Source of the DNA: Nemertoderma westbladi
Lineage: Eukaryota; Animalia; Xenacoelomorpha
Direction: 5' to 3'
Assembly (NCBI GenBank): GCA_032718475.1
Contig: JAUCBJ010008550.1
Span: forward strand, 1-59,968
DNA length: 59,968 nt
A program made the position numbers and the translations under genes. Below are positions 18,466 through 56,593 of the stretch, piece after piece (the first letter of the stretch is position 1; the number at the start of each line of letters is the position of its first letter). The notes below the pieces were generated by a model, which saw only the letters and a list, made by a program, of their open reading frames with translations, did no database searches and was not told where the DNA came from.

Positions 18466-18521
18466 CATAAACATTATAATTATAGTTTATAATTACATAC
18501 CTCTTTAGTTTATTTAAATTT

Positions 18522-26500: not shown

Positions 26501-26953
26501 TCTCCTCCCCAGCGGCACAACGAGATCTGGGACTTTGTCGCTGATGCTCTGACGGAGGTGTCACATAATGTGGCTGTGGAGCCAGTCCTCCAACCGCTAA
26601 CGGGCGAGCAGTTTGAACACCGCAGCACTTCAACGGACCAGCTGGTGAGATTGGACATCTCAGTGAGCGGCTTCTGGGGCAATCGGTTCCAGAAGACGTT
26701 CCTGGACGTCTCAGTCTTCAATCCACTGGCAGAAACTAATGCTGCCATGTCCCTACCGTCAGCACACCTTTACCATGAAGCGCGGAAGAACCTAAAGTAT
26801 CAGGAACGAGTGAGGGAGGTGGAACACGCCACCTTCACTCCTCTGATATTCTCCGCGTTTGGTGGTATGGCGCCTTCGGCCATACATCTGGTGAAGCGGT
26901 TGGCGCACCGCCTGGCGGAGAAGCGAGAAACGCGGTATGCGGAGTGCATCACA
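23517..26953 (+). mobile_element. CRE-clade-like non-LTR retrotransposon (RT + restriction-like endonuclease), disrupted
   Basis: RT motifs IALDKNPGVRPIGIGEVLR, DGTNAFN, GTTQGDPIAM, WYADD. RLE motifs RHNEI...RLDISVSGFW...FLDVSVFNP...HEARKNLKY...FTPLIFSAFGGM. One-base frameshift near 25485 (GQKA[G]IEFAIHSL), zinc-knuckle region missing before RHN, 3' end cut off. Confidence 0.88.
23730..24410 (+). repeat. GC-rich ~21-bp minisatellite (CAGTCCAGTCGGGTCCCCC..) within the CRE-like ORF
   Basis: Directly visible; translates as QSSRVP / SPVGSP / VQSGPP repeats. Confidence 0.93.
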
Positions 26954-26971
26954 TACTACTACTACTACTAG

Positions 26972-29985: not shown

Positions 29986-29989
29986 AAGT

Positions 29990-31171
29990 TTAGGCTCAGA
30001 ATCACCTAACTGGCGGGTAATTCAATGCGGCTCAAGATTTGTTTCAGATACTGAAAGCAGATATGCGGTTTGTGAAATAGAATTATTAGCGATACATTGG
30101 GCTATAAATAAATGTCGTATATATTTGTTGGGTTTTCATGGTTTCACAGTGGTAACAGACCACAAACCCTTGATATCGATTTGTAATGGCTTGAGTCTGG
30201 ATGCGATTGACAACCCTCGGTTACAGAGGATACTGGAGAAGTTGGGATCATATGTATTTACTGTTGAATGGAAAAGGGGCAAAGAACTTTGTGTTCCCGA
30301 TGCACTCAGTTGTGCTCCAGTTAGCAAGCCTTCAGTTGCTGAAATATCTGACCTAGAGGTTGACAATATGTTCAGTAATCAGATATTGGTCGCAAGCTTA
30401 AATTCTCTAAAGAAAGATTTGAATACCTTGGGAACCCAAGATTGTGCTTTAGAGTTCATAAAAAAATAAATTCTCATTGACAATGATTACAAGTCAATTT
30501 GTAAAGTACTAACTCAAGATACACAAATATCAGATTTACCAATGCAACCTCCGGCTCGAGTGTACGGCAAGCTCTGGGATCGCATATCGATCTCTGATGG
30601 AATGATAATTCTCGATGGAAATCGTATCATATTGCCTGCTAGTACTCGACCTGAAATTTTACGACGCTTGCATTCTTCCCATCAGGGTATTACGAAAACA
30701 AAGGCAAGAGCGAATCAATTATTTTATTGGCCTGGGATGACCAATGATATTATACAAACTGTAAATAGTTGCGAGCTTTGTCAGAAATATCAACCGAGTC
30801 TACCTACAACTAAGGAACCACTTCTGTCCGATTCAGTGACAAACCATCCTTTCCATTCTGCATCATTGGATTTGTTTCAATATGGAGATCAATATTTTTT
30901 GGTATATGTCGACCATTATACAGGATGGCCATGTGTAGACTTTTATGATAAAGTACCTTCAACATCCACTGTGGTCAGATCTCTAAAGAGGTTTTTTGTT
31001 GATTTTGGAATCCCAACATCCACTGTGGTCAGATCTCTAAAGAGGTTTTTTGTTGATTTTGGAATCCCGGTGAAACTTCGAAGTGATGGCGGCTCACAGT
31101 ACACATCATTGGAATTTAGAGAATTTTGCAAGGAATATGGCAACGACAGAGAAAACATTTCATCAGCATAA
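29990..31171 (+). pseudogene. Gypsy pol fragment: RNase H + integrase, truncated
   Basis: RNase H motifs ESRYAVCEIELLAI...VVTDHKPL...DALS. Integrase H2C2 LHSSHQG...FYWPGM...CELCQ and core SLDLF...SDGGSQYTS. Contains a frameshift, an in-frame 54-bp duplication, and lacks the final catalytic Glu region. Confidence 0.92.
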
Positions 31172-34170: not shown

Positions 34171-34616
34171 TAGAAGGGTTTACTGTGGAAGATCACCCAT
34201 GGTGGTGAACAGGCATTCCTTTAGGAACCAGAGTGGAAGGGTTTACTGTTGAAGATCACCGATGGTGGTGAACAGGCATTCCTTTAGGAAACAGTGGAAT
34301 TGTTTAATGTGGAAGATCACCCATGGTGGTGAACCAGCATTCCTTTAGGAAACACAGTGGAAGGGTTTATTGTGGAAGATCACCCATGGTGGTGAACAGG
34401 CATTCCTTAAGGAAACAGAGTGGAATGGTTTAATGTGGAAGATCACCCATGGTGGTGAACAGGCATTCCTTTAGTAAACAGAGTGGAAGGGTTTACTGTG
34501 GAAGATCACCCATGGTGGTGAACAGGCATTCCTTTAGGAACCAGAGTGGAAGGGTTTACTGTGGAAGATCACCCATGGTGGTGAACAGGCATTCCTTTTC
34601 GAAACAGAGTGGAATG
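34171..34616 (+). repeat. 63-bp minisatellite, left part (about 7 units)
   Basis: GTGGAAGGGTTTACTGTGGAAGATCACCCATGGTGGTGAACAGGCATTCCTTTAGGAAACAGA repeated; interrupted by the LTR element. Confidence 0.95.
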
Positions 34617-35872
34617 TGTAAAAGCTTCTGTGGGATATAACTGGCCCTTTTGCTTCGCAATCCAGTTTCCCCCCTAGGCGCTGGAATACTCTAAAAGGCT
34701 CTATAACTATATATATATTCCCCTCGCCCGCAAGGTACCGTTATAGGTGTTTTAACGGACATAAAAGTCATTCTGCTATATACGTGTTTTGGCGGACATG
34801 GTAAGGCAAAAAACCTGCAATGCACCAAATACCTTTCACAGCTTAGCCGTGATGATTCATATTACGACATCTAACAGCTGGTTGCTGACATGGAAACAGC
34901 CATTGGCCACATGGTTCTTTGTTTAGCTTAAGCCAATCAGAGCGATTTTTTCTGTCGATGTGGAGCTTTCGGTCGATCATACTAGGAGTGTTCAGTCTTA
35001 CTGTTTTTTACTTGATACTTTGTGTTATTGCTATCTAGGCCAGGAACACCGACTCTAGAGTCAACTCGGTTTCATACTTTAGAAGAAACATTAGTAGGCT
35101 TAAATTATAGAGCGTATAACCGTTATCTTATCTAATCATATCAACTGATCGCAATTCAGTTTTACATTATCGGTTCAATATACATTATTATACTGCTATT
35201 TACTATTGTTTGGTTGAATATTATTTGGAGAACATTTATAAAGAACCCAAATTTCCCAATTTTCTTGATACACTACAGGTTAGAGAGGCGGGTTATATAT
35301 AGCGATTGCGACTTATATTATTGTGTATGTAGTGAATTTAATGCTATTTGATAAGCACTACATTGGTCCGTTGCTGTTCTCTTTATATATGATAAAATTC
35401 ATTGACGGTCGGCAAATTAGTGGGCAGTATTGTATGTTACCGGTAGTGTGCATGATTGTGACTGATAACTAAGCATTTCCTAAAGAATGCGCCTCATACG
35501 TGAATCTTAAGCCTTACCGACTTGCCGTTGTGATTAGTATAAGTCATATCTCTGTTTACCTAGATAGAGCGCCACGTCCTAAAGGAACTGTTAATATTTC
35601 CCGAAAGTGAATAATATTAGTCAGAAATTAATTATTAACAATCAATCGAATAATACAGTACAGTAAGCTTACACTGCAATAATAATCTAAGCCCTCAGAA
35701 TCCAGCCCCCCGGGTATATCCAGCGGGTGAATGGACGCGCACTAGGCTGGCTTCTGCTAATGTTGTGTTTATTGGTATTAAATATTTGTCATCTTCTAAA
35801 GTCTATTTATAAACCAAAAGACATATAAATTTTGGCAGGTTAAACTGCTAAAGGTCTTCAAAAGCGCGTACA
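34617..35872 (+). repeat. 5' LTR (1256 bp)
   Basis: TGTAAAAGCTT...GCGCGTACA; near-identical to 48738-49984. Contains a TATA-like run, a CCAAT box and a TCAGT initiator-like motif. Confidence 0.97.
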
Positions 35873-35937
35873 ATAACGGTTATTGACTTTATTGCAGTAA
35901 GCAATAAAGTTGAAAGTACCGGTAAACCGGTAAACCT

Positions 35938-36066
35938 TAACCGGTACTTCTGTAGGTCAGTAGGCCCAACTGCCAGAACCGGTACTGCTGTAGGTCCGTA
36001 GGTCCAACTGTCAGAACCGGTACTTCTGTAGGTCCGTAGGCCCAACTGTCCTAACCGGTACTTCCA
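35938..36066 (+). repeat. ~39-bp tandem repeat in the LTR-element leader
   Basis: aaccggtacttctgtaggtccgtaggcccaactgtcag present about 3.3 times. Confidence 0.85.
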
Positions 36067-36239
36067 GTATAAGTACATTAGTATTATTCGATTTTGATTA
36101 TTGTATACCGGTAGGTCTTAGTATTTAATCAGGGACTGCAGCCCTGGTTTTTTATTGAGATTTTACTCATTTCTGTCGGTTTTATTTACATGTAAGTTAA
36201 TATTGAGCTGAAGACGTGTAAGTCTGCTCAGATTGTTCA

Positions 36240-36810
36240 GATAATTGTAGGTCGGACTGTTGTTAGATTGTTGTTGAGTTTGGAGAGATTACGGCGTGTG
36301 TGGAGTTTGTCCGATAGAGTGCCAGTTAGTAAGTTGGGGCAGCCATAGCTGTAAGGTCAATCCCCTCTTAAAGAATAAGTCGTACTACCGTGTTAGAACG
36401 CATACTAACTAACAATTTTGGAATCTGCACATACTGTAGTTTATTTAGGCTTGACAGTATTCTGCCAACGCTTTGGCCTGTGTTTGTTTGTGTGGTCTGT
36501 TCAGGTACCGTAATAGTTATTACTCAGATATTTTGTAGGCTGGATTGTTGTCTAGCTATTATTAGGTCTGAAGAGATTGCTGCTTGTGTAGAGTTTGTCT
36601 GATAAAGTGCCAGTTAGTAAGTTGGGGCAGCCATAGCTGTAAGGTCAATCCCCTCTTAAAGAATAAGTCGTACTACTGTGTTAGAACGCATACTAACTAA
36701 CCGTTTTGGAATCTGCACAGACAGTAGTTTATTTAGGCTTGGTGGTAGTCTGCCAGCGTTTGGTCTGTATTTTGTTTGAGTATTCTGTACGGGTAGCGTA
36801 ATATTTATTA
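36240..36810 (+). repeat. ~290-bp tandem duplication in the LTR-element leader
   Basis: The block gtgccagttagtaagttggggcagccatagctgtaaggtcaatcccctcttaaagaataagtcg... occurs at ~36319 and ~36607. Confidence 0.85.
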
Positions 36811-38101
36811 GTCAGAGTTTATGCGATTATTCGCAACATTCATGTCCCCAAGTTTATCCCTACAGTAATTGTGTTTGTTACACATACCGTTATAGTTAAA
36901 TTAACCCCGGTACTACACGGGCTGCTTGGCGTAGGACAAGACTGGTGACTTTGTGCTTCGGTCACTCCAGCAGATGCCGTGGTTCTTTTAACTGTTCAAG
37001 TATATTTAACTACTGATTATTTGTTGTACCAGTACTTGTACCTAATTTAGGGTTTAGTGTACAGTGCTTTCCGAGGTAATTAGTGTGTAGGCAGTATATT
37101 TGTGTTGTAAAGTGGTTAATAGGCACGCTGGATCTGGTAGTCCGCGGTAATTAACTTCTAGGTAGGAACACTCCGTGATACATAACGTAGTACCTATAGA
37201 GATACGGTTATAGGTCGTCAGGCGGTGGTATTTTCCTATCTGGACAGTGCAATATATTTACTACTACTTATTATTTCAAATACCGTAGTACCCTGTCCGT
37301 TGTAATAACCAGAATTCTAACCCTTTGTTAGGCTGGTTTGTAGACTTCCTGTAAAATTACCCTAAAAATTCGTACGTAATATTTTGTTGTGTTTAATTAG
37401 AGAATTAATCTCACCCGTATCGTAAGTAATTCGTAGTATTAAGTAACTTAGGTAAATTAGAATTATCTGTTTTAGTGTCCCATAAGTAGCACTCCACTGA
37501 GAGCGCACAGCTTCTGTGTAGTGACCCCCCAGAAATAATAACATTTATTTCAAATATTGACAAAACCCATTTTAAATGGGTATATATCTATTATAAATCA
37601 ACTCAAACGATTTATAAATAGTAGGCCTGCCATACAACAACTAGGTCTCAATATCAGTTGGACTACTGCTTAAATAACGGTAATAAAGTAAGTTAAAGTA
37701 ACCAAGTAACCCTAAAATATTCAGAAATTCAATTATTCTAAAATAATTGACATACCGGTATTTACCATAGGCTTATTAGATTTATTTCTATAAATTTGTG
37801 CTGAAATCATACCGGTATTCTGTAATTAATTCTAGTCCAGAATTATACTTATATACTATAAGTGTACGCTGCATACCGGTATTCACGATAGGCCTATTAT
37901 ATATTTATATATATTTGTACTAAAATTATATACCGGTACTCTGTGACAAACCTAGTTACAATACTTATATATACTATAAGTGTATACCGGTATTCTAATA
38001 TACTGCAATAAATTACTGGTACTAGGCCAACGGTCATACTGAATTACTAGTCTTGCTTTAACTGTAACTATAGCAGTAAGCATTCAACTGTATAGCTAAA
38101 C

Positions 38102-39650
38102 ATGTCTGACACTCAGCAAAACCTGTCAGACAGTCTAATCGATACAACCATCTGTGACACAGATAGGAGTGTGGAGCGATTAAGAAAGGAGTTCAGCTCA
38201 GCTCCTACTGAAAGAAAAGTCATCCCTCCAGTAGTGGTATCAGACCCTAAGCTAATCCAACACCGTAGGTCTATCATCGGCACTCGGGCCCAAGTCAAAC
38301 GGAACCAGGAAGCAGCTGTCCCACAGCAGCAACAGCCTAGGCAAAAAACTTGTTCCCAGCGATCCGATAGCTCCAGTAGTTCGGATACTGTCGAGCTGAC
38401 CCCCGAACGCGGATTGCAGATGGCGGCTAAAGCCTACTCGGACCCCCTTCTCACCCTTCCTGCCGCAGTGCTAACTACTATATTGATTGCGGTGGAGGAA
38501 CATCAAGCCGATTGGGCGAGAAATAAGCGAGCGACCCAAGATAATTATGCGGGATACGCCAGAGAAGAATTGATGTCTATTGTCGAGTCACAATGGAACT
38601 TTCCCGGACCCGGACTCCCGTTAGATCTGTCCGAGGCTACTTGGGAAGATATACACAGGATGGGAGTGGCTAAAGATACGATGGATCCAGCTGTTTGGAA
38701 GAGGTCGGCAGCAGGATATGTGCAGGGATTCTTCGGCTCCTTAGAGCGATTAGAAGAACAACTGTTTCGACAACCCCAAGGACCTCAAGAGCAGGAAGAA
38801 CTGCTATATCAAGTACGCGAAAGAACCCTACGCATTCGACTAATCCTATCAGCTTTTGAGGAAACTTCCAAAAGAAGACAGGACACGTCGCTGCAGGTTG
38901 CTGTCAAAACTTGGTTCCAGCGGGTAGGTCGCAAAGTACAAGAAACGGACCAGTGGAAATCCCAGCTGTCTGAGAGACTAACCTATGACGAACCAACCGA
39001 TGTCACCCTTCCTCAAGTGGAAGGCGAAGAGACCGCAGAGAGACCACGAACGAGAGACGCCATAGAACATTTATCTGTCCGACTATCAGCGATTCCTAGG
39101 AGACGAAGAGTTGAGGAGACGGCTGTCTGGACTTTCCCCTAATAGTGAAGGAACCCAACGTGTGTTAGACTCAATCGATGCTGAAATGTTAGCTGCTAAC
39201 CAAGCAGAATTTGATGAAAAACTCCGCCTCGCTAGAGTCCAAGAAGAACTAGTAAAGAAAAGACGGATAGAGGAACAAAAGGCGGCGGCTATGGCAGAAG
39301 CAGAAGTAGAAAGAAAGGCAGCGGCGGCAGAAGCAGAAGCAGAAAGAAAGGCAGCGGCGGCAGAAGCAGAAGCAGAAAGAAAAGCAGCAAAGGCAGCGGC
39401 GGCAGAAGCAGAAAGAAAGGCAGCGGCGGCAGAAGCAGAAGCAGAAAGAAAAGCAGCAAAGGCAGTGGCAGAAGCAGAACGGAGAGCCTCTGAGCAGACT
39501 ACCCAACTGGAGTTGGAAAATCTGCAAGAGACGCAAGACAACATAAATAAACAGTTAACTGCTAGTCAAATGCAGATGATGAGACGATCTACTCCCAAAC
39601 GCCAGGGATACACACACATCATCGGAGGAAAGCGAAACCACCGATCCTGA
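38102..39650 (+). pseudogene. N-terminal extension of Gag (two overlapping frames) with an Ala/Glu-rich coiled-coil repeat
   Basis: ORFs 38102-39142 and 39111-39650 lie in different frames directly upstream of Gag; AEAEAERKAAA repeats. The link to Gag is inferred from position. Confidence 0.6.
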
Positions 39651-39708
39651 AGGCGGAGGAAATAGATCTCTTCTAAGCAGGCGTAGAAAAACATCTCACC
39701 GTCACAAA

Positions 39709-42339
39709 TTGCCTGATTTGCCCCCAGCTGTTAGAAGACAGCTAGCTAGCACAGACTTAGGTAGTACGGAACCCGCATATCAAACTATTCAGGTCAAAAG
39801 ACTCCCTACAATAGTTGATGAGCCTGAAATAATTAGGCCTGTCGTTCCCAAAGTCACTTCTGTGTTAGAGACCCCTGTACTTCCAGAGCTTAACTCTAAA
39901 TTCCCTTTACATAGTACTACACTGCCTGTACCCGGTAGAACAGTCCAAGAGAATATCCCTGTCCTGATAGCAGAGAGAGAAATCAAAGATTTGTCTCCCG
40001 TCGTCCCACGTCAGCCCGCTACAATGTTGGCGACTCCCGCTTCGGCGGTCGAGTGGGTAGAAGAGGGACGGCGGGGGATGAATCTCCTGTTCGGACAGAT
40101 GCAGGAGACTGTCTACCAACTTAAGGGAACAGTAAGGGAAGGTAGGGCAGAGTTGCAAGAAGTGCAGCAAAGTATCGCACTGGAACGCGACAAGTTAGTC
40201 AATATACAAAAGGGCATACCAATACCCCCTGTAACATTGTGTCAACCTGTTAGGTCTGAAGTATTACATGCGCAAGGTGTGGAGCCTACACGCATCTATA
40301 CTGCTAGTGAAGTAGAAACTCCTATAGCAAACCCTATTAAGGGTGATTATAGACCTGTTATTAATGATATTCCCTATAGACCTGATAATGATCCGAGAAA
40401 TTTATATACCGATAATTCGATATTAAATAACACGATGGCCCAAGAAAGCTTTACGCGTCAGATGGCTAGAACAGAAGCCCGCCAAGCGGTCAAAGTGGGA
40501 GAGATCGTCAAATTCAATGGAGATGAGATGAAATGGTTACCTTTCAATGAATATTACAAAGACAGCATACAGAACTCTGTACTATCTAACGGAGAGAAAC
40601 TTAGGTTCCTCATCAAGTGCTTGGAAGGACCTCCCAAGTTAATGGCGTTAAAGTTTATTGGACATCCAGAAGGATTAAGACAAGTATGGGATACATTAAA
40701 CATCAGGTATGGTAACAAGGATAACATAGCTAAGTATTTGTATGCAAAATTAGTAGCCCCCCGACACTTCCTTAGTAGCGGGATTATAAAGTTTTCCGAT
40801 GAGATTCAAGAGATCTGTAGACAATTGGACTGGTTAGGTAAGTCTCATGAATATCAGAGTTCAATGGTTATTGGAGCCGTAGTCTCTACTTTACCAAAGG
40901 GTGGAGTATGTACACGCTGGGACAAGAAAGTGTTGTACATGAATGAACAACAACGACGAAGCCCTACCATGGCTGATCTCATGTCCTTCTTAGATAGTGA
41001 AGTAAAATTACAACTCATAAAGCAGTCCAGAGAGAAAACATCGGAAAATAAGGTAAGTGAGAAACCCGCTTCTAGGAGAAGGATAATACCAGTGTGTTAT
41101 ACAGACGACTGCGATAGCCAAGCTTCTCAAGAAGAGGACAGCGGGAAAGACACAGCAAAATCTTACTATGACAACAAGACCTATAAAGACGTAAGTAAAT
41201 ACAAGTCTCGAACCAGTGACAGGAGAGAACAGGTAACAACAACTCCTCCTACGTCTCCTAAGAGAATTCACGGAAGAAAGCCCGAAGAAAGAACGAGAGT
41301 GCATAACGTTACCCAAGGTAAAGTGACTAACATAAAACCTAACTGTGCGCTGTGCGACGGGCCCCACCGTTTGAGTGCGTGTGCTGAATTTCTAAAGAAA
41401 TCCCTTGTAGACAGACGTACAGTCCTGTGGAATAAGCGGTTATGCTATAATTGCCTCAGATCCGGACACCAACGGCGAACCTGTTACTCCGAAGTAAAGT
41501 GTGCAAAGTGTGGCGCGAAACATCACATCTTGTTACACAGTGAGTTCGAACGAGACAACCCGAGTCAGGTAAGTGAGCCCGAACTACATGTCCAATTCAG
41601 TGATGTAAATGACACTGATCAAGAGTCTGAGATGGAAGGATTCTATACTGACGAATTCTCCGACGCCAACGAATCCTGTTACCTAATAAATACCTCAGTG
41701 TATCGAGCACTTACTTATGAAAAGGACACCGACAATGAGTTCCCCCCAACTACTTTTGCCAGACAACCATCTTGGAAAGCTCCAACTTCCAACGTAGGAA
41801 TCAGAGAATTTCCTGTAGTGCAGGTAAGAGTTTACGGTCCTAACAAAAGTTACATAGTGAACGCCCTCCTTGACTCCGGCAGCACAGGAACATTCATCGA
41901 TCAAGAACTAGCCGAAGATATCTTTGCTGGACAACCCAAATTCCGGACTAAATTGAATATGTCAGGAATTATGCAGGTTTGGAAATATACCCTAACGGCA
42001 GACTACTATGTAGGTGTGTTGTCCACCCCCCAGGATAAATTAGGAGCTCAAGGTATAAGGTTGGTAAAAATGGTGGCTATAAAGAACTTCGCTACTACCC
42101 AAGCAGACCTTTATAATTGGGACGAGGATGAGAGCATCCAACATCTTAAGATACCTCGATTCCAGACAGATTATCCTGGAGTGCAAATACTCATCGGCCA
42201 AAACGCGCATGAGGCGCTCGAGACATTGGAGAAACGGCCTGCTCAACCGCAGCCACTACAAACCTATGCGGTAAGAACTAGAGTAGGTTGGTACTTCACT
42301 GGCCCTTCCCGTAGAACTCTCAAAGAGAGATTACCTTAA
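39709..42339 (+). CDS. BEL/Pao Gag-protease
   Basis: FNGDEMKWLPF...EKLRFL..CLEG (DUF1759-like). Three BEL-type knuckles: CALC...H...C, CYNCLRSGH....C, CAKCGAKHHILLH. Aspartic protease ALLDSGS...ILIG...AVRTRVGW..TGP. Confidence 0.92.
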   Translation: MPDLPPAVRRQLASTDLGSTEPAYQTIQVKRLPTIVDEPEIIRPVVPKVTSVLETPVLPELNSKFPLHSTTLPVPGRTVQENIPVLIAEREIKDLSPVVPRQPATMLATPASAVEWVEEGRRGMNLLFGQMQETVYQLKGTVREGRAELQEVQQSIALERDKLVNIQKGIPIPPVTLCQPVRSEVLHAQGVEPTRIYTASEVETPIANPIKGDYRPVINDIPYRPDNDPRNLYTDNSILNNTMAQESFTRQMARTEARQAVKVGEIVKFNGDEMKWLPFNEYYKDSIQNSVLSNGEKLRFLIKCLEGPPKLMALKFIGHPEGLRQVWDTLNIRYGNKDNIAKYLYAKLVAPRHFLSSGIIKFSDEIQEICRQLDWLGKSHEYQSSMVIGAVVSTLPKGGVCTRWDKKVLYMNEQQRRSPTMADLMSFLDSEVKLQLIKQSREKTSENKVSEKPASRRRIIPVCYTDDCDSQASQEEDSGKDTAKSYYDNKTYKDVSKYKSRTSDRREQVTTTPPTSPKRIHGRKPEERTRVHNVTQGKVTNIKPNCALCDGPHRLSACAEFLKKSLVDRRTVLWNKRLCYNCLRSGHQRRTCYSEVKCAKCGAKHHILLHSEFERDNPSQVSEPELHVQFSDVNDTDQESEMEGFYTDEFSDANESCYLINTSVYRALTYEKDTDNEFPPTTFARQPSWKAPTSNVGIREFPVVQVRVYGPNKSYIVNALLDSGSTGTFIDQELAEDIFAGQPKFRTKLNMSGIMQVWKYTLTADYYVGVLSTPQDKLGAQGIRLVKMVAIKNFATTQADLYNWDEDESIQHLKIPRFQTDYPGVQILIGQNAHEALETLEKRPAQPQPLQTYAVRTRVGWYFTGPSRRTLKERLP

Positions 42340-42444
42340 CAACAGGTATACCAAGTAAAGGAATGGGAAGTGGAGAGCAGTGATGTGGACGATCCAACTG
42401 AGGGAACACCATACTCCTCAGATAATGACGATATTAACTCCAAT

Positions 42445-42600
42445 GTAGATCAATGGAGACATTGCCTTGGGACGATTAATCCAGCCGACATCGCTTCCAG
42501 AGGAGCAACTCCTCAAGAACTGATAGATAATCCAGGCTGGTTAGGTGGATCCGACTTCTTAAGTAAAGAAGAAGAAGAATGGCCTCCTCATCTTACCACG
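42445..42600 (+). pseudogene. Remnant of BEL/Pao RNase H C-terminus
   Basis: QWRHCLGTINPADIASRG..P.EL....W.GG..FL.....WP. RT, most of RNase H and integrase are absent. Confidence 0.88.
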
Positions 42601-44404
42601 GCGGAGAGTAGACAGGCCAAGGGAGCGGAGAAAGTAACACAACAACTCAATCGCCCAGCTAGTCGTTTATGTTTACTGGAAAGAGACCGAAAACTGTCCG
42701 GAAACTATGGAAGGCAAGATACTCTTCCTACGACTACTTCCCTAATCCGACAAATATCTAGGGACTCCATAACGTGATAGCATGTGGAGTGGGCGTGTGA
42801 CTATATCATTTTATATTTGTTTTTATTTTATATTTATGTATGTATTATTATGTAATTTTATTATAATCGTTTTCTTTAATTTTATTTAGTAGAATGTTAT
42901 TTTAGTGATTATTTAGTAGATTAGTGCAATATATTAGTGTTTATTACGTACGTAATTACTTATAATATATATTTAGTGCGACGGCGAGAAATAATTATTT
43001 TTTCTCTTTCCTTACTGTCCGTATCATATTATAAATACGTGACTACAGTAAGATGAAATGTCAGTACTTATTAAAGTACAATAAAGCTCCTACTATATTC
43101 AAGTATTATTGGTAGGCAGAGTATTAGGAATGCAAAGTTCAGATCCTCGTGTCTCGGCTAAACCAAGCTCTGGGTAGACCTTGGAAACGACTTGCCTCTT
43201 CACACTGACATTGCTTCGTGCGATATTGCTCTTCTACCTTATATTAAATAATACATATAGTAGCGTGATGTCCCTTTAACAGTAGCGTAAAACGCAAATA
43301 AATCTGTTAAACCTTTTGACCATCTGTAATTCTAGTCGATTAAGATATCGCGGCACCCACCGATATACTTGAAAGACAAATTCTAGAATCAGTGGTTAAC
43401 GTCCCCAGACAAGTTCTGGAATAAATCGGTGCCCATCTTAAATATTAATTTAATATTTATTAAAATCTGTAAAATTCAGATCCGTTAACAATTCTAGTCG
43501 ATTAAGATATCGTAGCACTTACCGATACTCTTAAAAGACAAATTTCATAGAATTAAGAATCCTATGTCCCCAGACCTGCTCTGGAATCAAATTGTGTCAA
43601 TTTTAACATCAAATAATAAAATTCACGGGAATAAATTCAAATTCATATTTTAAATGAATTTCATAAATTTTCATTTTGTACAATTTATAACATTCCCAAA
43701 ATTCCATTAATTAATAGATCATGGGAGCGGAGATTCATCCTATTGAGTGTATTAGAGTGCGAGAATCTCCAACATATAGTCAATAGCCGATAAAATTAAT
43801 AAAATCATGCATAAAGAGGATATTGACAATTAAAGAATTATTATTAAATAGCATCCCAGATCTGTATGCATGAGAATTAACCTAATTCTACCGCTAGCAT
43901 TCCATAATGTCACCATAGCAACACCCACGCTAGAATTAGAAGCAAGTTAAAAGAACAATAGAAAGCTTGTCCCATTGCATAGCATAGCGAATATAGCACA
44001 CTGCTAGTATCCAAGGATACACAGTAATAACGTGACATTCTGGAAGGCACTGACTAACGGACAAATGGCCTGTATGTGTGCAGTTGGTGACAGTTGTGTG
44101 GAATTTGTGCGTTTATAGGTGAATGTTACTGCTAAAGTATGTTTACAGTAGCTAGTCGCAATTGTAAAAATAGCCCAACTCTCCTATAGAAAGAACCTAA
44201 GTGGATCCAAGCCTTTGGGACGGACAGTGGAGTGACTTGTGCCGGTTATCGTTGTCGTGCTGTTGCTACATGTTGGCGTAAACACCGCGACGACGGTACA
44301 TCGGCGCTGAGAATCCCACTGTCCGGGGGCAAAGAGAAGTAGGCAGCGACGCCCGCTCGCCTAAATATAAACTTATTTGATATTAATAAACTCAGATAGC
44401 AGAT

Positions 44405-47400
44405 ATGACGGAGTTGATAGAAGATGATCTTGGTATTAGGGAGCGATATACTCTACCTTTACAAGCATTTGTGGATAGCTTGATACGCGGTGAAGCCGAT
44501 CCAACCATTACGGAGGACGATGGTCGTTATATCGAACCGCCGATGTCCCAAGAGCAACTTGCGCTTGAATTGGACTATCGAAAATTCACCACTCGCTATA
44601 CGAATCGTAATGGTACGTATATGGACTTCTTAACGACCGGCCATCCTATCGATTTACATGATACGGACGATGTAGATACAGAGAGAGAAATGGTTCTATT
44701 TAAATATCATACCCAACGGAGTCGTAACGATAAACCGAGAATAGATCACGAAAATTCTATTCGTAATAGACTGGAAAGAGAAAACGTTGAAGAACCGGAT
44801 AAACGCATCGACTTCAACGAATACCTAGAATTTTTGAGAGAAACCTATCTCAACATCGCTAGTCAGCAGAACTTAGAGACTCAATATCCTCAAGGTATAC
44901 ATCACGACCCTGTGGTAGAACTCAAACGGCTCTATTTCACTATGATGTATCTTACCGCCGATCGTCCACTACCTGTTATCCCGGATAGTTTTGAACAAAT
45001 GGAAGAATATTGCAAAACTGGAGAACGTTCACCCGCGTTTCCTCTACAGGACGTACGTCTTTGGTATTATTGTGACGAATGCCCTAGACCCAACCAACAA
45101 ACTGAAAGACACAAACATCCGCGGAGACGTTGCGCTAAACATAGTTTTACGCGTTACACTTACGGGAGTTTCGAGCGAAACCTGTTCGACGTACCACCCA
45201 CGATCGCTCGTCTTAAACGATCACTGAATAAACCCATGATCAGAGTTCCGGAATACTCGGTCAGGCCTCCTCATTCCCTAGTGAGACCTCAAACTCTTGA
45301 TCCTAACAGTATCACTGATCCTCCCGAACTATATTCCCTGTTCAAAGACTTAGTGTTACCAGAACAATTAATCGGTGGTGCTCCGGTAGTGGGTTCGTTA
45401 GACATCCGCCCATCCTACTTAGCCGGATTGGGACGCGGGCAGCTAATATCGCCCTTTGATCCTTACAATCGTCCAGGATTAAACCCGATACAACCCGCCA
45501 CGGAAGTCGAGGAGAGCGTTATAAGAAACGCTTTAGACGCCATTCGACAGAAAATCGGAAAGGGAACACAAGATTGCTTAGAGAAACGTAAATTACAACA
45601 ACAAGTCCAATCGGTGAAGGAGTTAGCCTTGCCACAGTTCGATAGAGAAATCCAAAATCTCGAGGAAGACATCGAGCTTGGACGCACGTATTCTCTACAA
45701 GAATTTTTAGATGAACGCTTACAGAGACAAGCGGAAGAAAATCTAATCGAAGAGAAACACACGAAACTGGAAGAAAGAGAAGAAGCCGCTTTAGCCCAAC
45801 CTGAAGCTCAAATCCTCATGACGGACCTCTACTCTAAAACCGTTCGTCATCCCTCTATGATTCCACATTTCGGAGACAAGCTCTTCGCGACGATACAACC
45901 TCAACCGGTTGATATCAGTACAGGATCGCCAAATCTTATCGCTGACGCCCCTATGTTACAGCGTCCGCCGATCGAGGCCGCTCGTGTTGACGGTATACTC
46001 GTCGAACCTCCGGACAATCGAGCGGATCTTGTCCGTCGTATGGTACACGATGTCAACATAGGCGCTAGACCTTTACAGAACTCGTTTTATGGGATTAAAG
46101 ACCACCCTTATTACGTTAATCTGACTCAATATTATATGGTAAAGCCTGAAGACCCGACACATAATTTAAAGTTTCTACCACTAATAAATCCTCTAGACAT
46201 TGTCGAACTCGAACAATTGCAGAAACATCTGGATCAGTTAGTAAAGGTAAACTCATTTAGAAAACCATATAACATTTCTCGAATCGAGAAAGATATAGAA
46301 CCTCCTTATAATCTCGATGGATTTATTAAAGCTCGATTAGTCCATTGGAATCTAGATGTATTATTTGAAGAAGAGAAAATACAAAGATATGGAAATGTGG
46401 AGACGTATACCACTCGGCACATGAAGTATAGTGATCTCCCTGACGCTAACCAATGCGCCACCTTGTGGCATCCAGTAGGGATGACCCTAGAGAACGCCAC
46501 CAAGGAGTGGAATGAAACTCTTAATGTTATTGAGATGTATGGAGTTGTCACCTACGATAATGAAGGTAGCGTTCCAGTCGGAGAACTAGGAACTACGCGC
46601 ATGATTCACATACGCGGATTAGCTGGTTCTACCCACGTGTTTACTCGAGCGTGTTCCGACGTGATTGATTATTCCTTTGAAACTCTCACCGAAACACAAA
46701 AGAATCTCCGACATGGACAATTCGAACTCGCGCAGCGTTACGTCATTGACACCGAACGCAAACCGGCCATGGGCATCGATGGATCGATGTTACCCCAGCC
46801 CGTACTCGAGATGATGTTCAACGAAAGAATCCTTAAAATCGGCTCAGCTGTTTATGGAGATCTCCAAAACGACTTTCGGAATATGGAGAACATTCCATAC
46901 CCTTTCGTTGATACTCAGCTGATTGCTCCCTGGGCAGAAGGTCGAGGTTTCTTTCGCACTATGTATGCTAATACGCCTAGCAACATTACCAAGGTGCAAC
47001 GAACTTCCATCGGACATCTTGCCTTTCAGGAATACGGATGGAATTTCAAAGTCGGAAATCCCATTAACTATCAACAAGTATACGGAGATCATTATTCTCG
47101 ATTGTACTTTGATGGACCATTAACCGCACCCGGCGCCGTGTATAGCTTCATGAGTGTTCCACTCCGTCCCTCCTTAGCTATATACACGATCTTTGAAAAC
47201 ACCGCACTTGCCGGTTGGCTAGCCGATGTGTGCAGTCGTACTATACGCGCCCATCCATTAATACTTGGGACCAAACTCGCTAAGCTAGATGAACATAATA
47301 AATTCATCCGTTTCGAATGTTTCCGGCGATTTTTAACCCCGTTCCGCAACGTGGATAGCCAATTTAAAGACTGCGCTTTGACCAAACTCAGCCTAAGAAA

Positions 47401-48659
47401 CTCCGCTGCAGAGAAGTCGGATAGCGCTGGATTCGCCATTTTCAAAGAGATTTGTATATCGAACTTGCACTCCTCTGTTATACAAAGACCTCGAATCCCC
47501 ACAGGTTATTCTGTCGTGGAAATTCAGACAATAGGTCCACCTGAAGAGACAGACGCGCCCACTTCAGCTATGCACTTGGAAGACGAACCAATATGTCTAG
47601 AATCTGAAGAGATTCAGCCTATCGCGCCCCGGAACAGCGACAACGATTACATCATAGAATGGTATCAAGGTCCACAGTGTCTCACTGCGTACGATTATCG
47701 ACATGCCAACTATGTTTCTAGGCAACGTTGTCGGTTATGCGCATCGAGAGACCACGATACGCCCATGGACACCAACGTCTGCTGTTCCTATTTCCAAGAA
47801 CAACCGACTATGGAAATTTATTGCGCATATTGCAGACTCAATAACTTTGCATATCTTTGCGGTTTGCCCTCAATTTATGACTCAATGTCACCATTGTCAA
47901 CTAAAGGGACATGCTAGTTTCGACTGCCCTTTTAATCACGATTTGGAAAGCGTGGATGAAATGATCACACTACGTTACATCAGAGCTTGGGAAGCGAACG
48001 CTGATTTACATTGTGATTCGCGCCATCGCTATTATCCCGGACGCGCTTACGAAGGAGTTTATGCGTTCCATCCTTATCTATTCGCTTCGGTTGAACAGAA
48101 ATCACGCATATCAAGTTACGAGCTACTGAAGCGCGTTGGAGAATGTATTTCAACCAAATTCGTACGCAAATTTCTCAGGAATGTTAATCCTAGCGACCTT
48201 CATTCCTATAACCTAATCAATTATATCCGTCAGGATCCGGACTATGGAGACTTGTTTGTTAACTCACACCCCGAGTTACAGGAAGTATATCGACGGCCTT
48301 ACGAATACCGAGCCCGCGAACGCGAGTTGGAAAGGACCATTAAACCCCGGAGGTTTCTAACTGCCTATGGTCCACCCACGGCCCTCGTTCAGACCACTCG
48401 TAAAGGACCCGTAAGAACGGCTGTCTTGAAACGAGCTCTCAAAGCCGTTAGACCCCTCTCCCCGGACGTTGATGTCAATCAACCCGGTACTTCGACTGGC
48501 GGATACACCGACCATAATCCTACACCCTCTGATGCAATCATATTGCACCCTTCACCCAGGAGTTATAGCCCTCCTTGTAAAGTGGCTCGCCCCAAAGAGA
48601 AAAGGACTCTGGCTAGCTTTAAGAAACTGCGTAAGCGCAGTCCGCGCAAGAAAGACTAA
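44405..48659 (+). CDS. LTR-element accessory protein: putative DEDDy 3'-5' exonuclease + CCHC zinc knuckles (one frameshift near 47846)
   Basis: 1170-aa ORF plus an overlapping 318-aa ORF. ExoI VVTYDNEG, ExoII LPQPVLEMMFNERILKIGSAVYGDL...FVDTQ, SIGHLA...YG, ExoIII-like PL.PS...YTIFE. Knuckles CAYCRLNN/HIFAVC and CHHCQLKGHASFDC; basic C-terminus. Confidence 0.72.
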
Positions 48660-48737
48660 CTGTTTAGAGTATTTACGTATATTAGAAACTGTGATTTTGT
48701 ATATTTTATAGACTCAAATCCCATTTTCTGGGAGCGG

Positions 48738-49984
48738 TGTAAAAGCTTCTGTGGGATATAACTGGCCCTTTTGCTTCGCAATCCAGTTTCCCCCCTAGGC
48801 GCTGGAATACTCTAAAAGGCTCTATAACTATATATATATTCCCCTCGCCCGCAAGGTACCGTTATAGGTGTTTTAACGGACATAAAAGTCATTCTGCTAT
48901 ATACGTGTTTTGGCGGACATGGTAAGGCAAAAAACCTGCAATGCACCAAATACCTTTCACAGCTTAGCCGTGATGATTCATATTACGACATCTAACAGCT
49001 GGTTGCTGACATGGAAACAGCCATTGGCCACATGGTTCTTTGTTTAGCTTAAGCCAATCAGAGCGATTTTTTCTGTCGATGTGGAGCTTTCGGTCGATCA
49101 TACTAGGAGTGTTCAGTCTTACTGTTTTTTACTTGATACTTTGTGTTATTGCTATCTAGGCCAGGAACACCGGCTCTAGAGTCAACTCGGTTTCATACTT
49201 TAGAAGAAACATTAGTAGGCTTAAATTATAGAGCGTATAACCGTTATCTTATCTAATCATATCAACTGATCGCAATTCAGTTTTACATTATCGGTTCAAT
49301 ATACATTATTATACTGCTATTTACTATTGTTTGGTTGAATATTATTTGGAGAACATTTATAAAGAACCCAAATTTCCCAATTTTCTACAGGTTAGAGAGG
49401 CGGGTTATATATAGCGATTGCGACTTATATTATTGTGTATGTAGTGAATTTAATGCTATTTGATAAGCACTACATTGGTCCGTTGCTGTTCTCTTTATAT
49501 ATGATAAAATTCATTGACGGTCGGCAAATTAGTGGGCAGTATTGTATGTTACCGGTAGTGTGCATGATTGTGACTGATAACTAAGCATTTCCTAAAGAAT
49601 GCGCCTCATACGTGAATCTTAAGCCTTACCGACTTGCCGTTGTGATTAGTATAAGTCATATCTCTGTTTACCTAGATAGAGCGCCACGTCCTAAAGGAAC
49701 TGTTAATATTTCCCGAAAGTGAATAATATTAGTCAGAAATTAATTATTAACGATCAATCGAATAATACAGTACAGTAAGCTTACACTGCAATAATAATCT
49801 AAGCCCTCAGAATCCAGCCCCCCGGGTATATCCAGCGGGTGAATGGACGCGCACTAGGCTGGCTTCTGCTAATGTTGTGTTTATTGGTATTAAATATTTG
49901 TCATCTTCTAAAGTCTATTTATAAACCAAAAGACATATAAATTTTGGCAGGTTAAACTGCTAAAGGTCTTCAAAAGCGCGTACA
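48738..49984 (+). repeat. 3' LTR (1247 bp)
   Basis: Same sequence as the 5' LTR apart from a 9-bp indel and two substitutions seen by eye. Confidence 0.97.
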
Positions 49985-50135
49985 GAATGGTTTAATGTGG
50001 AAGATCGCCCATGGTGGTGAACAGGCATTCCTTTAGGAAACAGAGTGGAAGGGTATACTGTGGAAGATCACCCATGGTGGTGATTAGGCATCATTTAGGA
50101 AACGGAGTGGAATGGTTTACTGTGGAAGATCACAC
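49985..50135 (+). repeat. 63-bp minisatellite, right part (about 2.5 units)
   Basis: Continues the 34171-34616 array in register after the target-site duplication. Confidence 0.95.
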
Positions 50136-51494: not shown

Positions 51495-52574
51495 TAGTGC
51501 CCACGATAATGCGATTAAATGACCGTGGGCACTAAAGGTACTGAGACATTAGTGCCCGCAGGCACTAATGTCTCGCGGGAACTAACGTCCCAAGACCCTC
51601 CCACACACCCCAGCTAACATGGTAGATCTTATGGTAGAACTTGGGCTTAGGGTAGAACTCACTTCCAGCCAATATACCATCTATAGTACCTGCAGTATTT
51701 TTAATTATTATGATAAATCACCCAGGAATAGATCTTTTCTACAGAAAGGATATTTGGCAATTATCAAAAAAACGTCACACAAAATGGTGATTTTTAAACC
51801 TTTACTTTTCTTTCTTTTGGCTGATGATATCATTTCTAGGTATGTTAATTGATAGCAAAATGATGGAATCGAAAGTTTACGGATATTGTTACATCAATAA
51901 ACAAGCTTGTAAAACAACTCGTTTTTCATTCGAACTTTCTGTCTCTGACGAACTACAAAAATTATTAAATTACTTTGATATAAAAGTACACATGTATGAT
52001 GAAATATTAAAATTTTTAGTATTTTACAGCAAGCATTAGATTTATAAAAGTGAAACAAATTGAAAAAACTTCCTTCCATCACCGTTTTGCCATACTTTAT
52101 TTCAATTTTCTGACACCACCTCATTTCTGTCCCTGACAATTCTGTCTCTGACAAATGAGTTGTACTTTTGTGTCTGGAGGGAAATTTAAATTACATTACT
52201 AGCTATTAGTTTATAATGGCAGTGATTTTTTATGTCCTTTTATTTGACTTTTTTGTCCTTTTTTTTTACGAATTATGCATAATGACTTTTGTTGTCCTTT
52301 TAATGACTTTTATTGTCCTTTTATAATGACTTTTTATGTATGTATTTCTTCAAACTGTCAGACTGTTGATTTCTGGACTGTCAGACAGTTGATTTCACTA
52401 TGCCTGTGCCAAAACATTCCATGATTCCATGATTTATAGACTATGAGATAGATTTCCATATGCGCCTGTGGTAAAAAGACTCTATATTTAATAGTTTGTG
52501 GTTGTTGTCGATAATCGATTACCACATGACGTAGCAAAACACTCATTTTATAGCCAAAAACAATTACCAATTGA

Positions 52575-53333
52575 TGGAAAGGAGCAGGTTAAGGCCGAGT
52601 TTTCTAACCAAAACAATAAACAGTCACTTTACCAAATCAGGGAAAGGAGCAGGTTACAGAGACGGGATTTTCTAACCAAAACAATAAACGATCATTTAAC
52701 TAATTGAGGGAAAGGGACAGGTTACAGAGGCGGAATTTTCTAACCAAAACAATAAACGATCACTTAACTAATTGAGGGAAAGGAGCAGGTTACAGAGGCG
52801 GGATTTTCAAACCAAAACAATAAACGATCATTTAACTAATTGAGGGAAAGGGGCAGGTTACAGAGGCGGGCCTTTCTAACCAAAACAATAAACGGTCACT
52901 TTACCAATTCAGGGAAAGGAGCAGGTTACAGAGGCGGGATTATCTAACCAAAACAATAAACGATCATTTAACTAATTGAGGGAAAGGGGCAGGTTACAGA
53001 GGCGGGATTTTCTAACCAAAACAATAAACGATCATTTAACTAATTGAGGGAAGGGAGCAGGTTACAGAGACGGGATTTTCTAACCAAAACAATAAACGAT
53101 ATCATTACCAATTGAGAGAAAGGAGCAGGTTACAGAGGCGGGATTTTCTAACTAAAACAATAAACGATAACATTACCAATTGAGGGAAAGGAGCAGGTTA
53201 CAGAGGCGGGATTTTCTAACCAAAACAATAAACGATCACTTAACTAATTGAGGGAAAGGAGCAGGTTAAGGCCGGATTTTCTAACCAAATCAATAAACAG
53301 TCACTTTACCAAATCAGGGAAAGGAGCAGGTTA
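52575..53333 (+). repeat. 68-bp minisatellite (about 11 units) nested in the Sola element
   Basis: GGGAAAGGAGCAGGTTACAGAGGCGGGATTTTCTAACCAAAACAATAAACGATCATTTAACTAATTGA repeated with a 68-bp period. Confidence 0.95.
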
Positions 53334-54230: not shown

Positions 54231-56593
54231 ATGGTTAAACCTGGTAGAGAGCGGCAGGCTGCCTATGAAAAACGTAAACGCAACGAACTCGGTAACGCAT
54301 CATTTAAAGAAAATCAGCGGCTTCGAAAACATGAATATCGTAGGAAGCTAAAGATTGAAAATCCTGAAAAATGTAACAAAATCAAGAAAATCGACCGTGA
54401 TTACAAGCTTAAAAAAAATAAGGAAAGTTAACAAGGGGTGGCACTGACACAAACAGTTCAGGTTCTGCTTCTCCTGTTACAACAGCGTCTCCAGCCAGAA
54501 AGTCAGGATTTTATAATAGACAGACATTATCTAGGTCTGTCAATAAAGTCCACTGAGTGTTAGAGAAAACAGCTAGCCCAACGAAGCAAAAACAAATATT
54601 ACAGTCACTTGTTTGTTCTCTTTCACCTAAGAGCAAATCCACTGTCATAAAGGATTCCTGTGGTCGTCACTCATTGGAAGAATTGGGAAGACGTCAGGAA
54701 ATAATCAAATTCCTTGAGTCACCAGATATATCATACTGTTGTCCTTCAAAGAGAGATATGGTATATATTGGAAAAGTCGAAAATAAATCAATCTTTAAAC
54801 CGAAACATTATCTATTATGGAATCTCAATGAAACTTTGGCATTGTACAACAATTCCAACATTATTCAAACATCATACGGCACACTCCATACTATTGTCTC
54901 AGAAGAAAAACATATATTTCTAAATGTGGATATGCCGAATGAAACCTGCAGATGCAATCTGTGTGAAAACCTGGAACTCATACTTATCAAGCTATCTAAC
55001 CTACCTGCCAAACCTGAACAATTAATGCTGAGGCTACACCCATGTCTGAAGACCAGTTTTGATGGAGATAGTTGTCCTGGTATGTCAGCTATCACTGATG
55101 ATGATGTGTCTACAATGCAGCAACAAGAATCTGTTCTCTACCATCAGTGGGTTGATATGCCTATTGCTAAGGGAAAAAAACAACCAAAGAAAGTGCAGAT
55201 AGAAGAAACAGGTAGAGAATTCATAGAAACTTTATTTAAAAAGTTAAAGCGATACTTTTGTCACATGTATGGCTTTCTAAACCAGCACCGAGAATTGCGC
55301 TACTTGAAAGAAAATCTACTCCCAGGTCATGTAATTATTAGTGTTGATTTTTCACAGAATTATCGTAATGCTCAACTAAACGAAATCCAGAGTGCCTACT
55401 ATGGAAATCAGTCCTTTTCCATATTTACTGCAGCAATCTATTTCTCTTCTGTTGCTGTCCAATCTACATGTGATACCGGTACTATTCCATCTATCTACTC
55501 TAGTGTTAATCAGGGTGATGACTGTGATGGCTCTCTTATAGATAATAATGTTGAGGAAATACAACAAAAGGGAAGTCTTGGACAGAAGTCATTTGCAATA
55601 GTGTCTAATGATATTAAACATAGTAAATACATGGCTTTCGCATGTTGCAATAAGCTGATAGGGTCAGCACATCATCTTATCGAACCAGTTAAGTTACAGC
55701 ATATACACATATGGTCTGATGGCTGCTCGCAGCATTTCAAATCTCGGTTTACATTTGTATTGTTGAATGAATATCCTAAGGACTGCTCGGTTACTTGGAA
55801 CTATGGTGAGTCACACCACTTTAAAGGCCCTCACGACGGAATAGGAGGGTTAGTAAAACGGAAAGTCTATAGTGATGTCAAGGGTGGAAAGGTTGTTATA
55901 GAACAAGCAGACCAATTCGCCAAATACGCTAATGATCATCTTAATATTGAAGACCTGTACATGGATGCAGATGACATCACAACTGTCCGCAATGAAATAG
56001 AGAGAAAAGTCATATATGCAAAGCGTGTAAAAGATACACTCAGGATACATCAGATGAAACAAAAGCAGCAAATAATAGAGTTCTATAACCATTCTACATA
56101 CAGGAATAAGAACATAAAACCTGTTTTTCAATCAACATTTAGAATGCTATTGTCATCCAATCCAGATCTAATCTCACCCATTCTCGAATCTGATTCAGAT
56201 TCGGAATCGAATTTAGAGTCAGAATCAGAAGCCCCACCATCTGATAGAATTATATCCGATTCTCATTATGCACCTATCATGTATCCACTGAAAACAAAGA
56301 TTCTTCCTGGAGCATACGTTGTTGCTCAGTTTGTGAACTTTGTTTCTGTTGGTGTAATTCTATCTAGAGAATCACCAAATAACTTAATCCGGGTCAAATT
56401 CATGCGTAAGAGTGTTACTTTTTCTGGACTAACTGTTTTCAAACGGCCTGATAATGTCGATATATATGATGTGACTGAATCTGCCATCTGTGGCTTGCTT
56501 CCATCCCCGGCATCTCTGGCCGAGGAACCTACAAATTCGAAACTGATCTATCCATATATGAGAATATTAAATAGATTACACCGTATTCAATAA
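54231..56593 (+). pseudogene. Sola2-like DDD transposase with a disrupted N-terminus
   Basis: Motifs VDFSQNY, EIQSAYY, HIWSDGCSQHFK, WNYGESHHFKGPHDGIGGLVKR. Frameshift near the A-run at ~54411-54420 and an in-frame TGA at 54554; the catalytic part is open for 678 codons. Confidence 0.8.

Follow-up and report, generated by a model that had tools for sequence, protein, structure and literature searches.

A predicted RNase D-type exonuclease gene with zinc knuckles in a BEL/Pao retrotransposon family of Nemertoderma westbladi

DEDDy third genes have been published for the bdelloid rotifer gypsy-type elements Juno and Vesta and for the Athena/Terminon retroelements (PMC5408684, PMC6431247), and the available portions of these papers show no activity for such ORFs. 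The third genes described for BEL/Pao elements (Belpaoviridae), for example in roo and in mosquito elements, are env-like glycoproteins, as far as PMC8742986 and the available portions of PMC3118150 and PMC13524379 go, and a DEDDy third gene in BEL/Pao was not found in print. Here we describe a predicted gene of this kind, ORF3. If a nuclease-like third gene is under selection here, DEDDy cargo would reach a further LTR superfamily, beyond Terminons and the gypsy-type elements of rotifers.

The window, that is, the whole stretch of 59,968 nucleotides analysed (Nemertoderma westbladi, assembly GCA_032718475.1, contig JAUCBJ010008550.1, positions 1-59,968, forward strand), holds a young BEL/Pao element of 15.4 kb even without pol, with the following parts outside ORF3.

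34612..34616, no strand: 5-bp target-site duplication, second copy at 49985-49989
34617..35872, plus strand: 5' LTR, TG...CA, 1,256 bp
35873..35883, plus strand: primer-site position, 11 nt perfectly complementary to LTR 35116-35126
38102..39650, plus strand: likely gag N-terminal region, two overlapping frames in this copy, Ala/Glu/Lys-rich repeat
39583..42339, plus strand: gag-protease frame with DUF1759, three zinc knuckles (41344, 41443, 41500) and the aspartic protease motif LDSGS
42340..42777, plus strand: pol remnant, with the RT, RNase H and integrase cores deleted
48738..49984, plus strand: 3' LTR, 1,247 bp, with a short purine run just upstream

The LTRs are 99% alike, with 2 substitutions and a single 9-nt indel between them, and the insertion target was a 63-bp tandem array. 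Assignment to BEL/Pao, as in the initial annotation, is supported by the predicted gag, which carries DUF1759 (Pao-type gag; E 3.2e-12) and three knuckles, a pattern that marks this family; the TG...CA LTR pair, the target-site duplication and the aspartic protease are also present. The gag N-terminal region has no noteworthy Pfam match. No RT, RNase H or integrase family match was obtained in the element and 42340-44400 holds no long frame. The leftover motifs in the pol remnant were assigned by BEL/Pao pol patterns. The large gene reported initially indeed lies between this remnant and the 3' LTR. A primer-binding site for tRNA-Arg or tRNA-Gly, as given for BEL/Pao (PMC8742986), is absent: no TGG occurs within 25 nt of the 5' LTR end, a feature that had been overlooked. 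The complementarity at 35873..35883 exceeds the 10 bp taken to indicate self-priming (PMC6317226) and has a simulated chance of 0.0004, in a post hoc test on a near-palindromic motif; the element may thus be a candidate for self-priming via LTR 35116-35126.

ORF3 comprises about 1,415 codons split over two frames in this copy, so that the length first put forward (about 1,400 codons) holds and the single open frame does not; the frame break near 47,845 had escaped notice.

44366..44396, plus strand: candidate internal ORF3 promoter, TATAAA with an initiator-like TCAG 26 nt downstream
44405..47845, plus strand: first frame, 1,146 codons from ATG 44405 to the frame break near 47,845; unassigned N-terminal part of ~700 aa (Cys/His cluster, charged stretch), exonuclease domain, linker, first knuckle-like cluster
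46514..47209, plus strand: predicted DEDDy/RNase D-type exonuclease domain, aa ~704-935
46556 and 46562, plus strand: likely ExoI, D718 and E720, a placement non-significant alone
46859, plus strand: likely ExoII, D819, block scan rank 1 of 1,149 positions
47183 and 47195, plus strand: likely ExoIII, Y927 and E931, with E931 at block scan rank 1 of 1,152
47729..47927, plus strand: three Cys/His clusters, one atypical and two CCHC-type knuckles
47850..48659, plus strand: second frame, 269 codons to the stop at 48659; knuckles, unassigned domain, basic tail

The break interrupts the second zinc knuckle, and the exonuclease domain is unbroken. At the break site, length variation in the contigs of other copies preserves a single frame (15 contigs in X1, 6 in X3, 3 in X5), as does that in loose contig ends in X1, X4 and X5; since other copies stay in frame, we dropped a programmed frameshift near 47,845. 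An envelope gene was dropped as well because a hydrophobic segment is absent: in a simple hydropathy window scan for a signal peptide or membrane anchor, the best 19-residue Kyte-Doolittle mean of ORF3 was 1.21, and its N-terminus is charged, in agreement with the first description. The Cys/His clusters (at 45071, 47729, 47822 and 47886) and the basic C-terminus, in which K/R make up 14 of the last 40 residues, were likewise as first described.

The signature of a DEDDy exonuclease, the central claim of the initial annotation, is upheld at the level of sequence. Searched alone against 18,950 models, the window domain matches RNase D (TIGR01388) at ExoII with E 0.0019, a match that is significant yet under the curated cut-offs (17.5 bits versus 299 for full-length RNase D), and its family matches span just ~45-60 residues around ExoII. 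Its sole relative among 1.84 billion representatives is P0001 (E 1.5e-5, 29% identity over 171 aa), a protein of 648 aa, unnamed, that comes from an ENA assembly and is known here from its sequence alone. The family match of P0001 extends from ExoI through ExoII; its ExoI block is clear (score 19.0 versus 6.9 for the next), with a clean D-x-E, and it matches PF01612 weakly (E 0.2) at the same ExoII stretch as the window domain. In HHalign, the pair profile of the window domain and P0001 aligned over 97 columns with a profile built from 65 DEDDy domains of bacteria, at a probability of 93% and E 2.6e-7, while 100 column-shuffled decoys reached at most 5.8% and the reversed profile 0.7%. Of the cross-checkable matches of this pair profile in 101 whole bacterial genomes, 22/29 fell inside a PF01612 match, and among four bacterial DEDDy subgroups RNase D scored best (91% versus 19, 8 and 1.5%). 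The resemblance thus exceeds chance both at ExoII and over the entire domain, which supports a DEDDy/RNase D-type assignment.

The window ORF3 protein has no Pfam match and no HRDC match, PDB sequence searches matched no nuclease, and PHROGs held nothing relevant. Word-index homolog searches, which are length-limited and require shared 5-mers, returned none with the window protein and only itself with P0001; related loci were absent from metagenome and viral contigs and from phages, and plasmids gave one chance row. Two predicted models had pLDDT 30.7 and 27.8, too low to judge the fold; with the model at ~31, Foldseek and VIA-align (best Z 5.9, to designed proteins) were uninformative either way.

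Like ORF3, P0001 combines an exonuclease domain bearing Y-x-x-x-E-N with a charged linker and three C-terminal knuckles, the last two separated by C-x6-C in both proteins; unlike ORF3, it is without the long N-terminal part. The score between knuckles 2-3 of ORF3 and those of P0001 was reached by 5/2,000 shuffles. A motif past the last knuckle, seemingly common to both, was dropped, as 1,972/2,000 shuffles reached its score.

The motifs listed initially were found in their places: YDNEG at 46553, LPQPVLEMMFNERILKIG at 46790, GDL at 46856, VDTQ at 46907, SIGHLA at 47006 and YTIFE at 47183. The placement of ExoI at D718/E720 is plausible: it is locally the best one, aligning to D62 of P0001, yet its score is reached by 38/200 shuffles. 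The single-block scan puts D718 at rank 4 of 1,156 and the three-block scan gives it a tie with D782 of 'IDTE', and ExoI at D718 requires an insertion of ~30-40 aa ahead of ExoII. D782 was dropped as ExoI, since 37 residues would then separate ExoI from ExoII (E. coli RNase D, 57; P0001, 68), too few to hold two strands. The ExoIII block score is low (2.5 versus 0.9 for the next; ExoIII of P0001 lies outside the top 4 of the same scan), and a joint MAFFT alignment did not place YTIFE under the family motif. The canonical Y-x-x-x-D is lacking, with Y927 kept and residue 931 being Glu, as the initial annotation had it, which makes ORF3 a D-E-D-E variant and a non-canonical DEDDy member. The further suggestion of a pseudo-nuclease is weakened, because the ExoIII Tyr and Glu are common to the 29%-identical P0001, so that the change suggests conservation of the site and not its decay. 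The Klenow mutant D501E is said to retain much activity, a point that we do not use as evidence.

ORF3 appears to be a maintained part of the element family rather than a private remnant, as other copies' contigs and the listed variants support. That the family is multi-copy rests on many variant contigs (155,285 records from X1); contig depth was rejected as an invalid measure of copy number. Among the 40 best supported of 341 variants, which are not a random sample, 27/40 in 46480-47960 are synonymous (p 4e-6), and 12/15 within the domain, versus 0.325 expected (p 2e-4); a second set of listed ORF3 variants is weaker (8/14 synonymous, p 0.046). Indels among the listed variants are few over 1,481 bp, with none in the domain, and one of the 40, read alone, is a stop at codon 1019, downstream of the domain. 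In long contigs from diverged relatives, the only aligning parts are aa 704-751, the ExoI block, and aa 894-935, the ExoIII block. Thus, the exonuclease gene shows signs of purifying selection among the listed copy variants. A joined form without 44774-47577, and hence without the whole domain, occurs in X1, in X5 and, at high depth, in X4, indicating that copies can spread without the domain in cis.

What is directly supported is the anatomy of the element, the homology of the domain, the architecture common to P0001 and the synonymous excess among listed variants. Building on these, we tentatively propose, without claiming an even chance for it, that ORF3 is the third gene of a multi-copy BEL/Pao family whose RNase D-type DEDDy domain and knuckles act as a trans-acting, metal-dependent trimmer of RNA 3' ends, by which RNA of the family would escape silencing or surveillance in the host. 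ORF3 would be made from its own internal promoter, its knuckles and basic tail would bind single-stranded RNA and may carry the protein to the nucleus, and D718, E720, D819, Y927 and E931 would make up a functional two-metal site even with Glu in place of Asp. The putative substrates would be small RNAs of the host or RNA ends by which the element would otherwise be targeted. The domain-less form counts in favour of the proposal as regards action in trans and, as a sign that copies can spread without the domain in cis, also against it.

It is possible, if rather less probable, that the DEDDy fold serves as a non-cutting RNA-binding adaptor, like EXD1, Exuperantia and Egalitarian, that carries or shields element RNA or decoys surveillance factors. 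The Glu in ExoIII, the weak ExoI signal and the long insertion would suit such a role, as would knuckles and a basic tail fit for RNA binding, and precedents exist in the available portions of 10.1101/2025.08.03.668247 and PMC5408684. Egalitarian keeps the five DEDDy residues, and these are dispensable for binding RNA and for function in vivo (same preprint, available portion), so that conserved residues do not prove cutting. However, P0001 retains the Tyr and an acidic residue at the same place and has a clean ExoI, and conservation among relatives peaks at the ExoI and ExoIII blocks, both of which speak against an adaptor.

Perhaps ORF3 instead helps replication by trimming 3' ends in the particle, for example those of a self-primer cut from element RNA, or of cDNA, an idea we consider unlikely. 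The want of a tRNA-type primer site together with the 11-nt complementarity would fit, the knuckles of P0001 resemble retroviral nucleocapsid (E 1e-4), and 3'-end processing of element RNA has been proposed for rotifer ORFs (PMC5408684, available portion). Yet the complementary motif is near-palindromic, and ORF3 is without an evident link to Gag.

A bolder form of the trimmer proposal would hold that a BEL/Pao family without polymerase rose to high copy number because it retained an active D-E-D-E knuckle exonuclease that destroys or mis-trims host small RNAs, an enzymatic suppressor of piRNA silencing drawn from a little-sampled mobile DEDDy-knuckle gene family in invertebrates; we regard this as improbable. 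It is more doubtful still that ORF3 is inherited cargo, its synonymous excess dating from selection in an autonomous ancestral family, while in the present polymerase-less lineage it would no longer matter. The ORF3 of this copy is broken, a stop occurs as one of the listed variants, the domain-less derivative is deep in X4, and in rotifers env and GDSL ORF3s varied neutrally within genomes (PMC5408684 section 3.6, available portion), but the listed indels are few and spare the domain, and several different variants at the frame break all keep one frame. Least probable is another fold with a DEDDy resemblance confined to the ExoII segment, as the narrow family matches and models at pLDDT ~31 and ~28 would allow, against which stand the P0001 match from ExoI to ExoII, the HHalign alignment (97 columns, 93%) and the right motif order.

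With a domain unbroken in this copy, a large family and domain-less derivatives, the element offers a practical case in which to ask whether animal retrotransposons carry enzymes that counter RNA silencing, and whether a site of the D-E-D-E type can be active. Like RNase D/Rrp6, EXD, MUT-7, Nibbler and Egalitarian, ORF3 has the ExoII pattern 'LP..L..LL....I.K.G....DL', DTQ and the ExoIII Tyr; unlike them, it has Glu at the fourth acidic position, knuckles and no HRDC match. The DEDDy subgroups compared were bacterial. As far as the available portions of the sources describe them, env-bearing BEL/Pao elements share the LTR-gag-pol-third gene layout and the DUF1759 gag, whereas their third gene is a glycoprotein rather than a predicted soluble nuclease-like protein, and their size is given as 4.2-10 kb versus 15.4 kb here without pol (PMC8742986, PMC3118150, PMC13524379). 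The ORF3s of Juno, Vesta and Athena/Terminon, within the same limits, likewise are RNase D-like third genes in the env position without a transmembrane segment, with one motif Asp changed to Glu and Cys/His motifs in some members. The present gene differs from these in its BEL/Pao host without pol, its ~1,415 aa, its three knuckles and its ~700 unassigned N-terminal residues, and the substitution pattern, compared by description rather than by sequence, is D-E-D-E here and DEED in the available portion of the rotifer paper (PMC5408684).

The large third gene between the pol remnant and the 3' LTR, ORF3, is real: a DEDDy-like accessory gene carried by a BEL/Pao family. Its surroundings are as follows, in forward-strand coordinates.

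6061-20036 and 52569-53333: large satellites, with units of 25 bp (501 copies), 15 bp (102 copies) and 68 bp (11 copies)
23445-26971: two overlapping frames without Pfam match, headed by a 21-bp repeat; presumably a non-LTR retrotransposon, given an RT-like 'QGDP...YADD' and a restriction-like C-terminus
29957-31171: broken remnant of a gypsy-type RNase H and integrase
34617-49984: LTR element holding ORF3, 15,368 bp
35873-38100: long non-coding leader of 2.2 kb that includes tandem duplications of 38 bp and 288 bp
39583-42339: frame matching DUF1759 (E 3.2e-12) and bearing three zinc knuckles plus the motif of an aspartic protease
42778-44400: 1.6-kb spacer carrying a ~115-bp duplication
44405 to near 47,845: first frame of ORF3, running 1,146 codons from the ATG until the frame breaks
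near 47,845 to 48659: second frame of ORF3, 269 further codons ending in a stop
54557-56593: frame of 678 codons without Pfam match, with motifs 'WSDGC..HFK' and 'HFKGPHDGIGG', which we assume to be akin to transposase-like ORFs sharing them

Between the two LTRs, of 1,256 and 1,247 bp, there are two substitutions and a single 9-nt indel. Both start with TG and end with CA, and a 5-bp duplication borders them within a 63-bp tandem array, so the insertion is young. The domains of the gag-protease frame identify the element as BEL/Pao. Only 145 codons of pol follow; a family-profile search of this copy gave no match for RT, RNase H or integrase, and no long open frame was found in 42340-44400. 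The copy is incapable of replicating by itself. As to whether the family at large shares the pol deletion, none of the 24 loose ends listed, with 3,991 more beyond the listing, falls at the inner junctions of the pol remnant. Contigs from four public sequencing runs span the element in all its 30 bins and show many variants; it is therefore part of a large family.

The initial annotation had counted ~1,400 codons for ORF3, which is correct as a sum but overlooks the frame break. Other copies keep one frame there: 15 contigs do so in run X1, six in X3 and three in X5, as do several different loose-end variants. The motifs it named all lie where it placed them, and ORF3 has no hydrophobic segment, in agreement with its reading of no obvious TM segment. 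A putative internal promoter would consist of the TATAAA at 44366 and an initiator-like TCAG at 44392. The first ~700 residues (44405-46500) have no family match; they include a Cys/His cluster (45071) and a charged, coiled-coil-like stretch (aa ~350-470).

Four sequence comparisons support the proposed DEDDy domain. The ORF3 protein has no match in Pfam, among PDB sequences or in two word-index homolog searches. Among 1.84 billion representatives searched in full with HMMER, the single match was P0001, an unnamed 648-aa protein (E 1.5e-5, 29% over 171 aa) whose N-terminal part is exonuclease-like and whose three knuckles resemble those of retroviral nucleocapsid. The domain matches RNase D TIGR01388 (E 0.0019, 18,950 models searched), and a profile of the pair finds matches in 45 of 101 bacterial genomes at E values no higher than 1, the best being 0.0012. 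Of the 50 matches listed, 29 are in genomes to which PF01612 was applied as well, and 22 of these 29 lie inside a PF01612 match. Against 65 bacterial DEDDy domains, HHalign gives the pair profile a probability of 93% (E 2.6e-7, 97 columns), as against at most 5.8% in 100 shuffled decoys, and the window domain without P0001 60%. In block scans D819 ranks first of 1,149 for ExoII and E931 first of 1,152 for ExoIII, the latter at low score.

The predicted active site likely comprises D718, E720, D819, Y927 and E931. Local alignment with P0001 within aa 650-795 lands on D718/E720 without reaching significance, as 136-298 of 500 shuffles do equally well; with this pair as ExoI the three-block score is matched in 38 of 200 shuffles. 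'IDTE' at D782 scores equally but was rejected, being too near ExoII and without space for two strands. In long contigs of diverged relatives only aa 704-751 and 894-935 align, which modestly favours D718, with the caveat that the compared stretch starts only 34 nt upstream and that one contig of 243 nt aligns over aa 758-835 as well. The motif of P0001 escaped the ExoIII scan, and one joint alignment misplaced that of the window. The domain departs from the canonical ExoIII motif: its fourth acid is Glu. Since P0001, at 29% identity, shares this change (Y-x-x-x-E-N), a maintained variant site is suggested rather than decay, which does not prove cutting.

Tentatively, we favour a reading in which ORF3 would be expressed separately, bind RNA and act as a metal-dependent trimmer of RNA 3' ends, working in trans and thereby shielding the RNA of its family from silencing or surveillance. 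The analysis demonstrates the element's anatomy, the homology of the domain and the excess of synonymous variants, and from these the expression, the cutting and the substrate of ORF3 are inferred. It is possible, if rather less probable, that ORF3 serves as an RNA adaptor or decoy without cutting. Conserved residues are no proof of cutting, since Egalitarian, in the accessible text of 10.1101/2025.08.03.668247, keeps all five and does not need them.

That ORF3 is instead a helper, trimming a primer or cDNA end, is unlikely, but would fit the priming region. No tRNA-type (TGG) primer site was found after the 5' LTR, and the 11 nt that follow it (35873-35883) pair perfectly with LTR 35116-35126 (a post hoc observation, with a simulated chance of 0.0004); an 8-nt complement lies at 34737-34744, 29 nt below a TATA run. 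The 11-nt complement is a candidate self-priming site, agreeing with the self-priming criterion in the accessible part of PMC6317226, and together with the missing TGG site it resembles Tf1/Tj1 as described in the available text of PMC4600332.

ORF3 is probably under selection. Of the 341 variants in 46480-47960 the 40 with the best support, which are no random sample and were each read alone against the window copy, include 27 synonymous ones (expected fraction 0.32 from the observed spectrum, p 4e-6). Those listed include 12 of 15 synonymous in the exonuclease domain (p 2e-4), where none is an indel, 15 of 25 in the linker and knuckles, and one which, so read, is a stop at codon 1019; a separate set of ORF3 variants has only 8 of 14 synonymous. 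Copies without the exonuclease domain exist too, since a joined form lacking 44774-47577 (2,804 nt, the whole domain) occurs in X1, X4 and X5 and is deep in X4. We consider it improbable that ORF3 is inherited cargo. Another fold for the domain, of which two structure predictions reach pLDDT of only 30.7 and 27.8, is very improbable given the profile matches to DEDDy domains.

The only third genes named for BEL/Pao elements in the ICTV profile (PMC8742986) and in the accessible parts of PMC3118150 and PMC13524379 are env-like. A search of the open full-text literature, with Repbase and most subscription journals outside it, turned up no exonuclease gene in any BEL/Pao element; such elements may stand unannotated among the 7,861 BEL/Pao sequences of the PMC3118150 supplement. 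The available text of PMC5408684 describes RNase D-like DEDDy ORF3s in Juno and Vesta of rotifers as well as in Terminons, with the motif written DEED and activity not demonstrated there, and neutral variation of env and GDSL ORF3s; the portions available of PMC6431247 and PMC6338049 give the same account of the DEDDy ORF3s. Without clade membership being implied, these rotifer genes are like the ORF3 of the window in layout.
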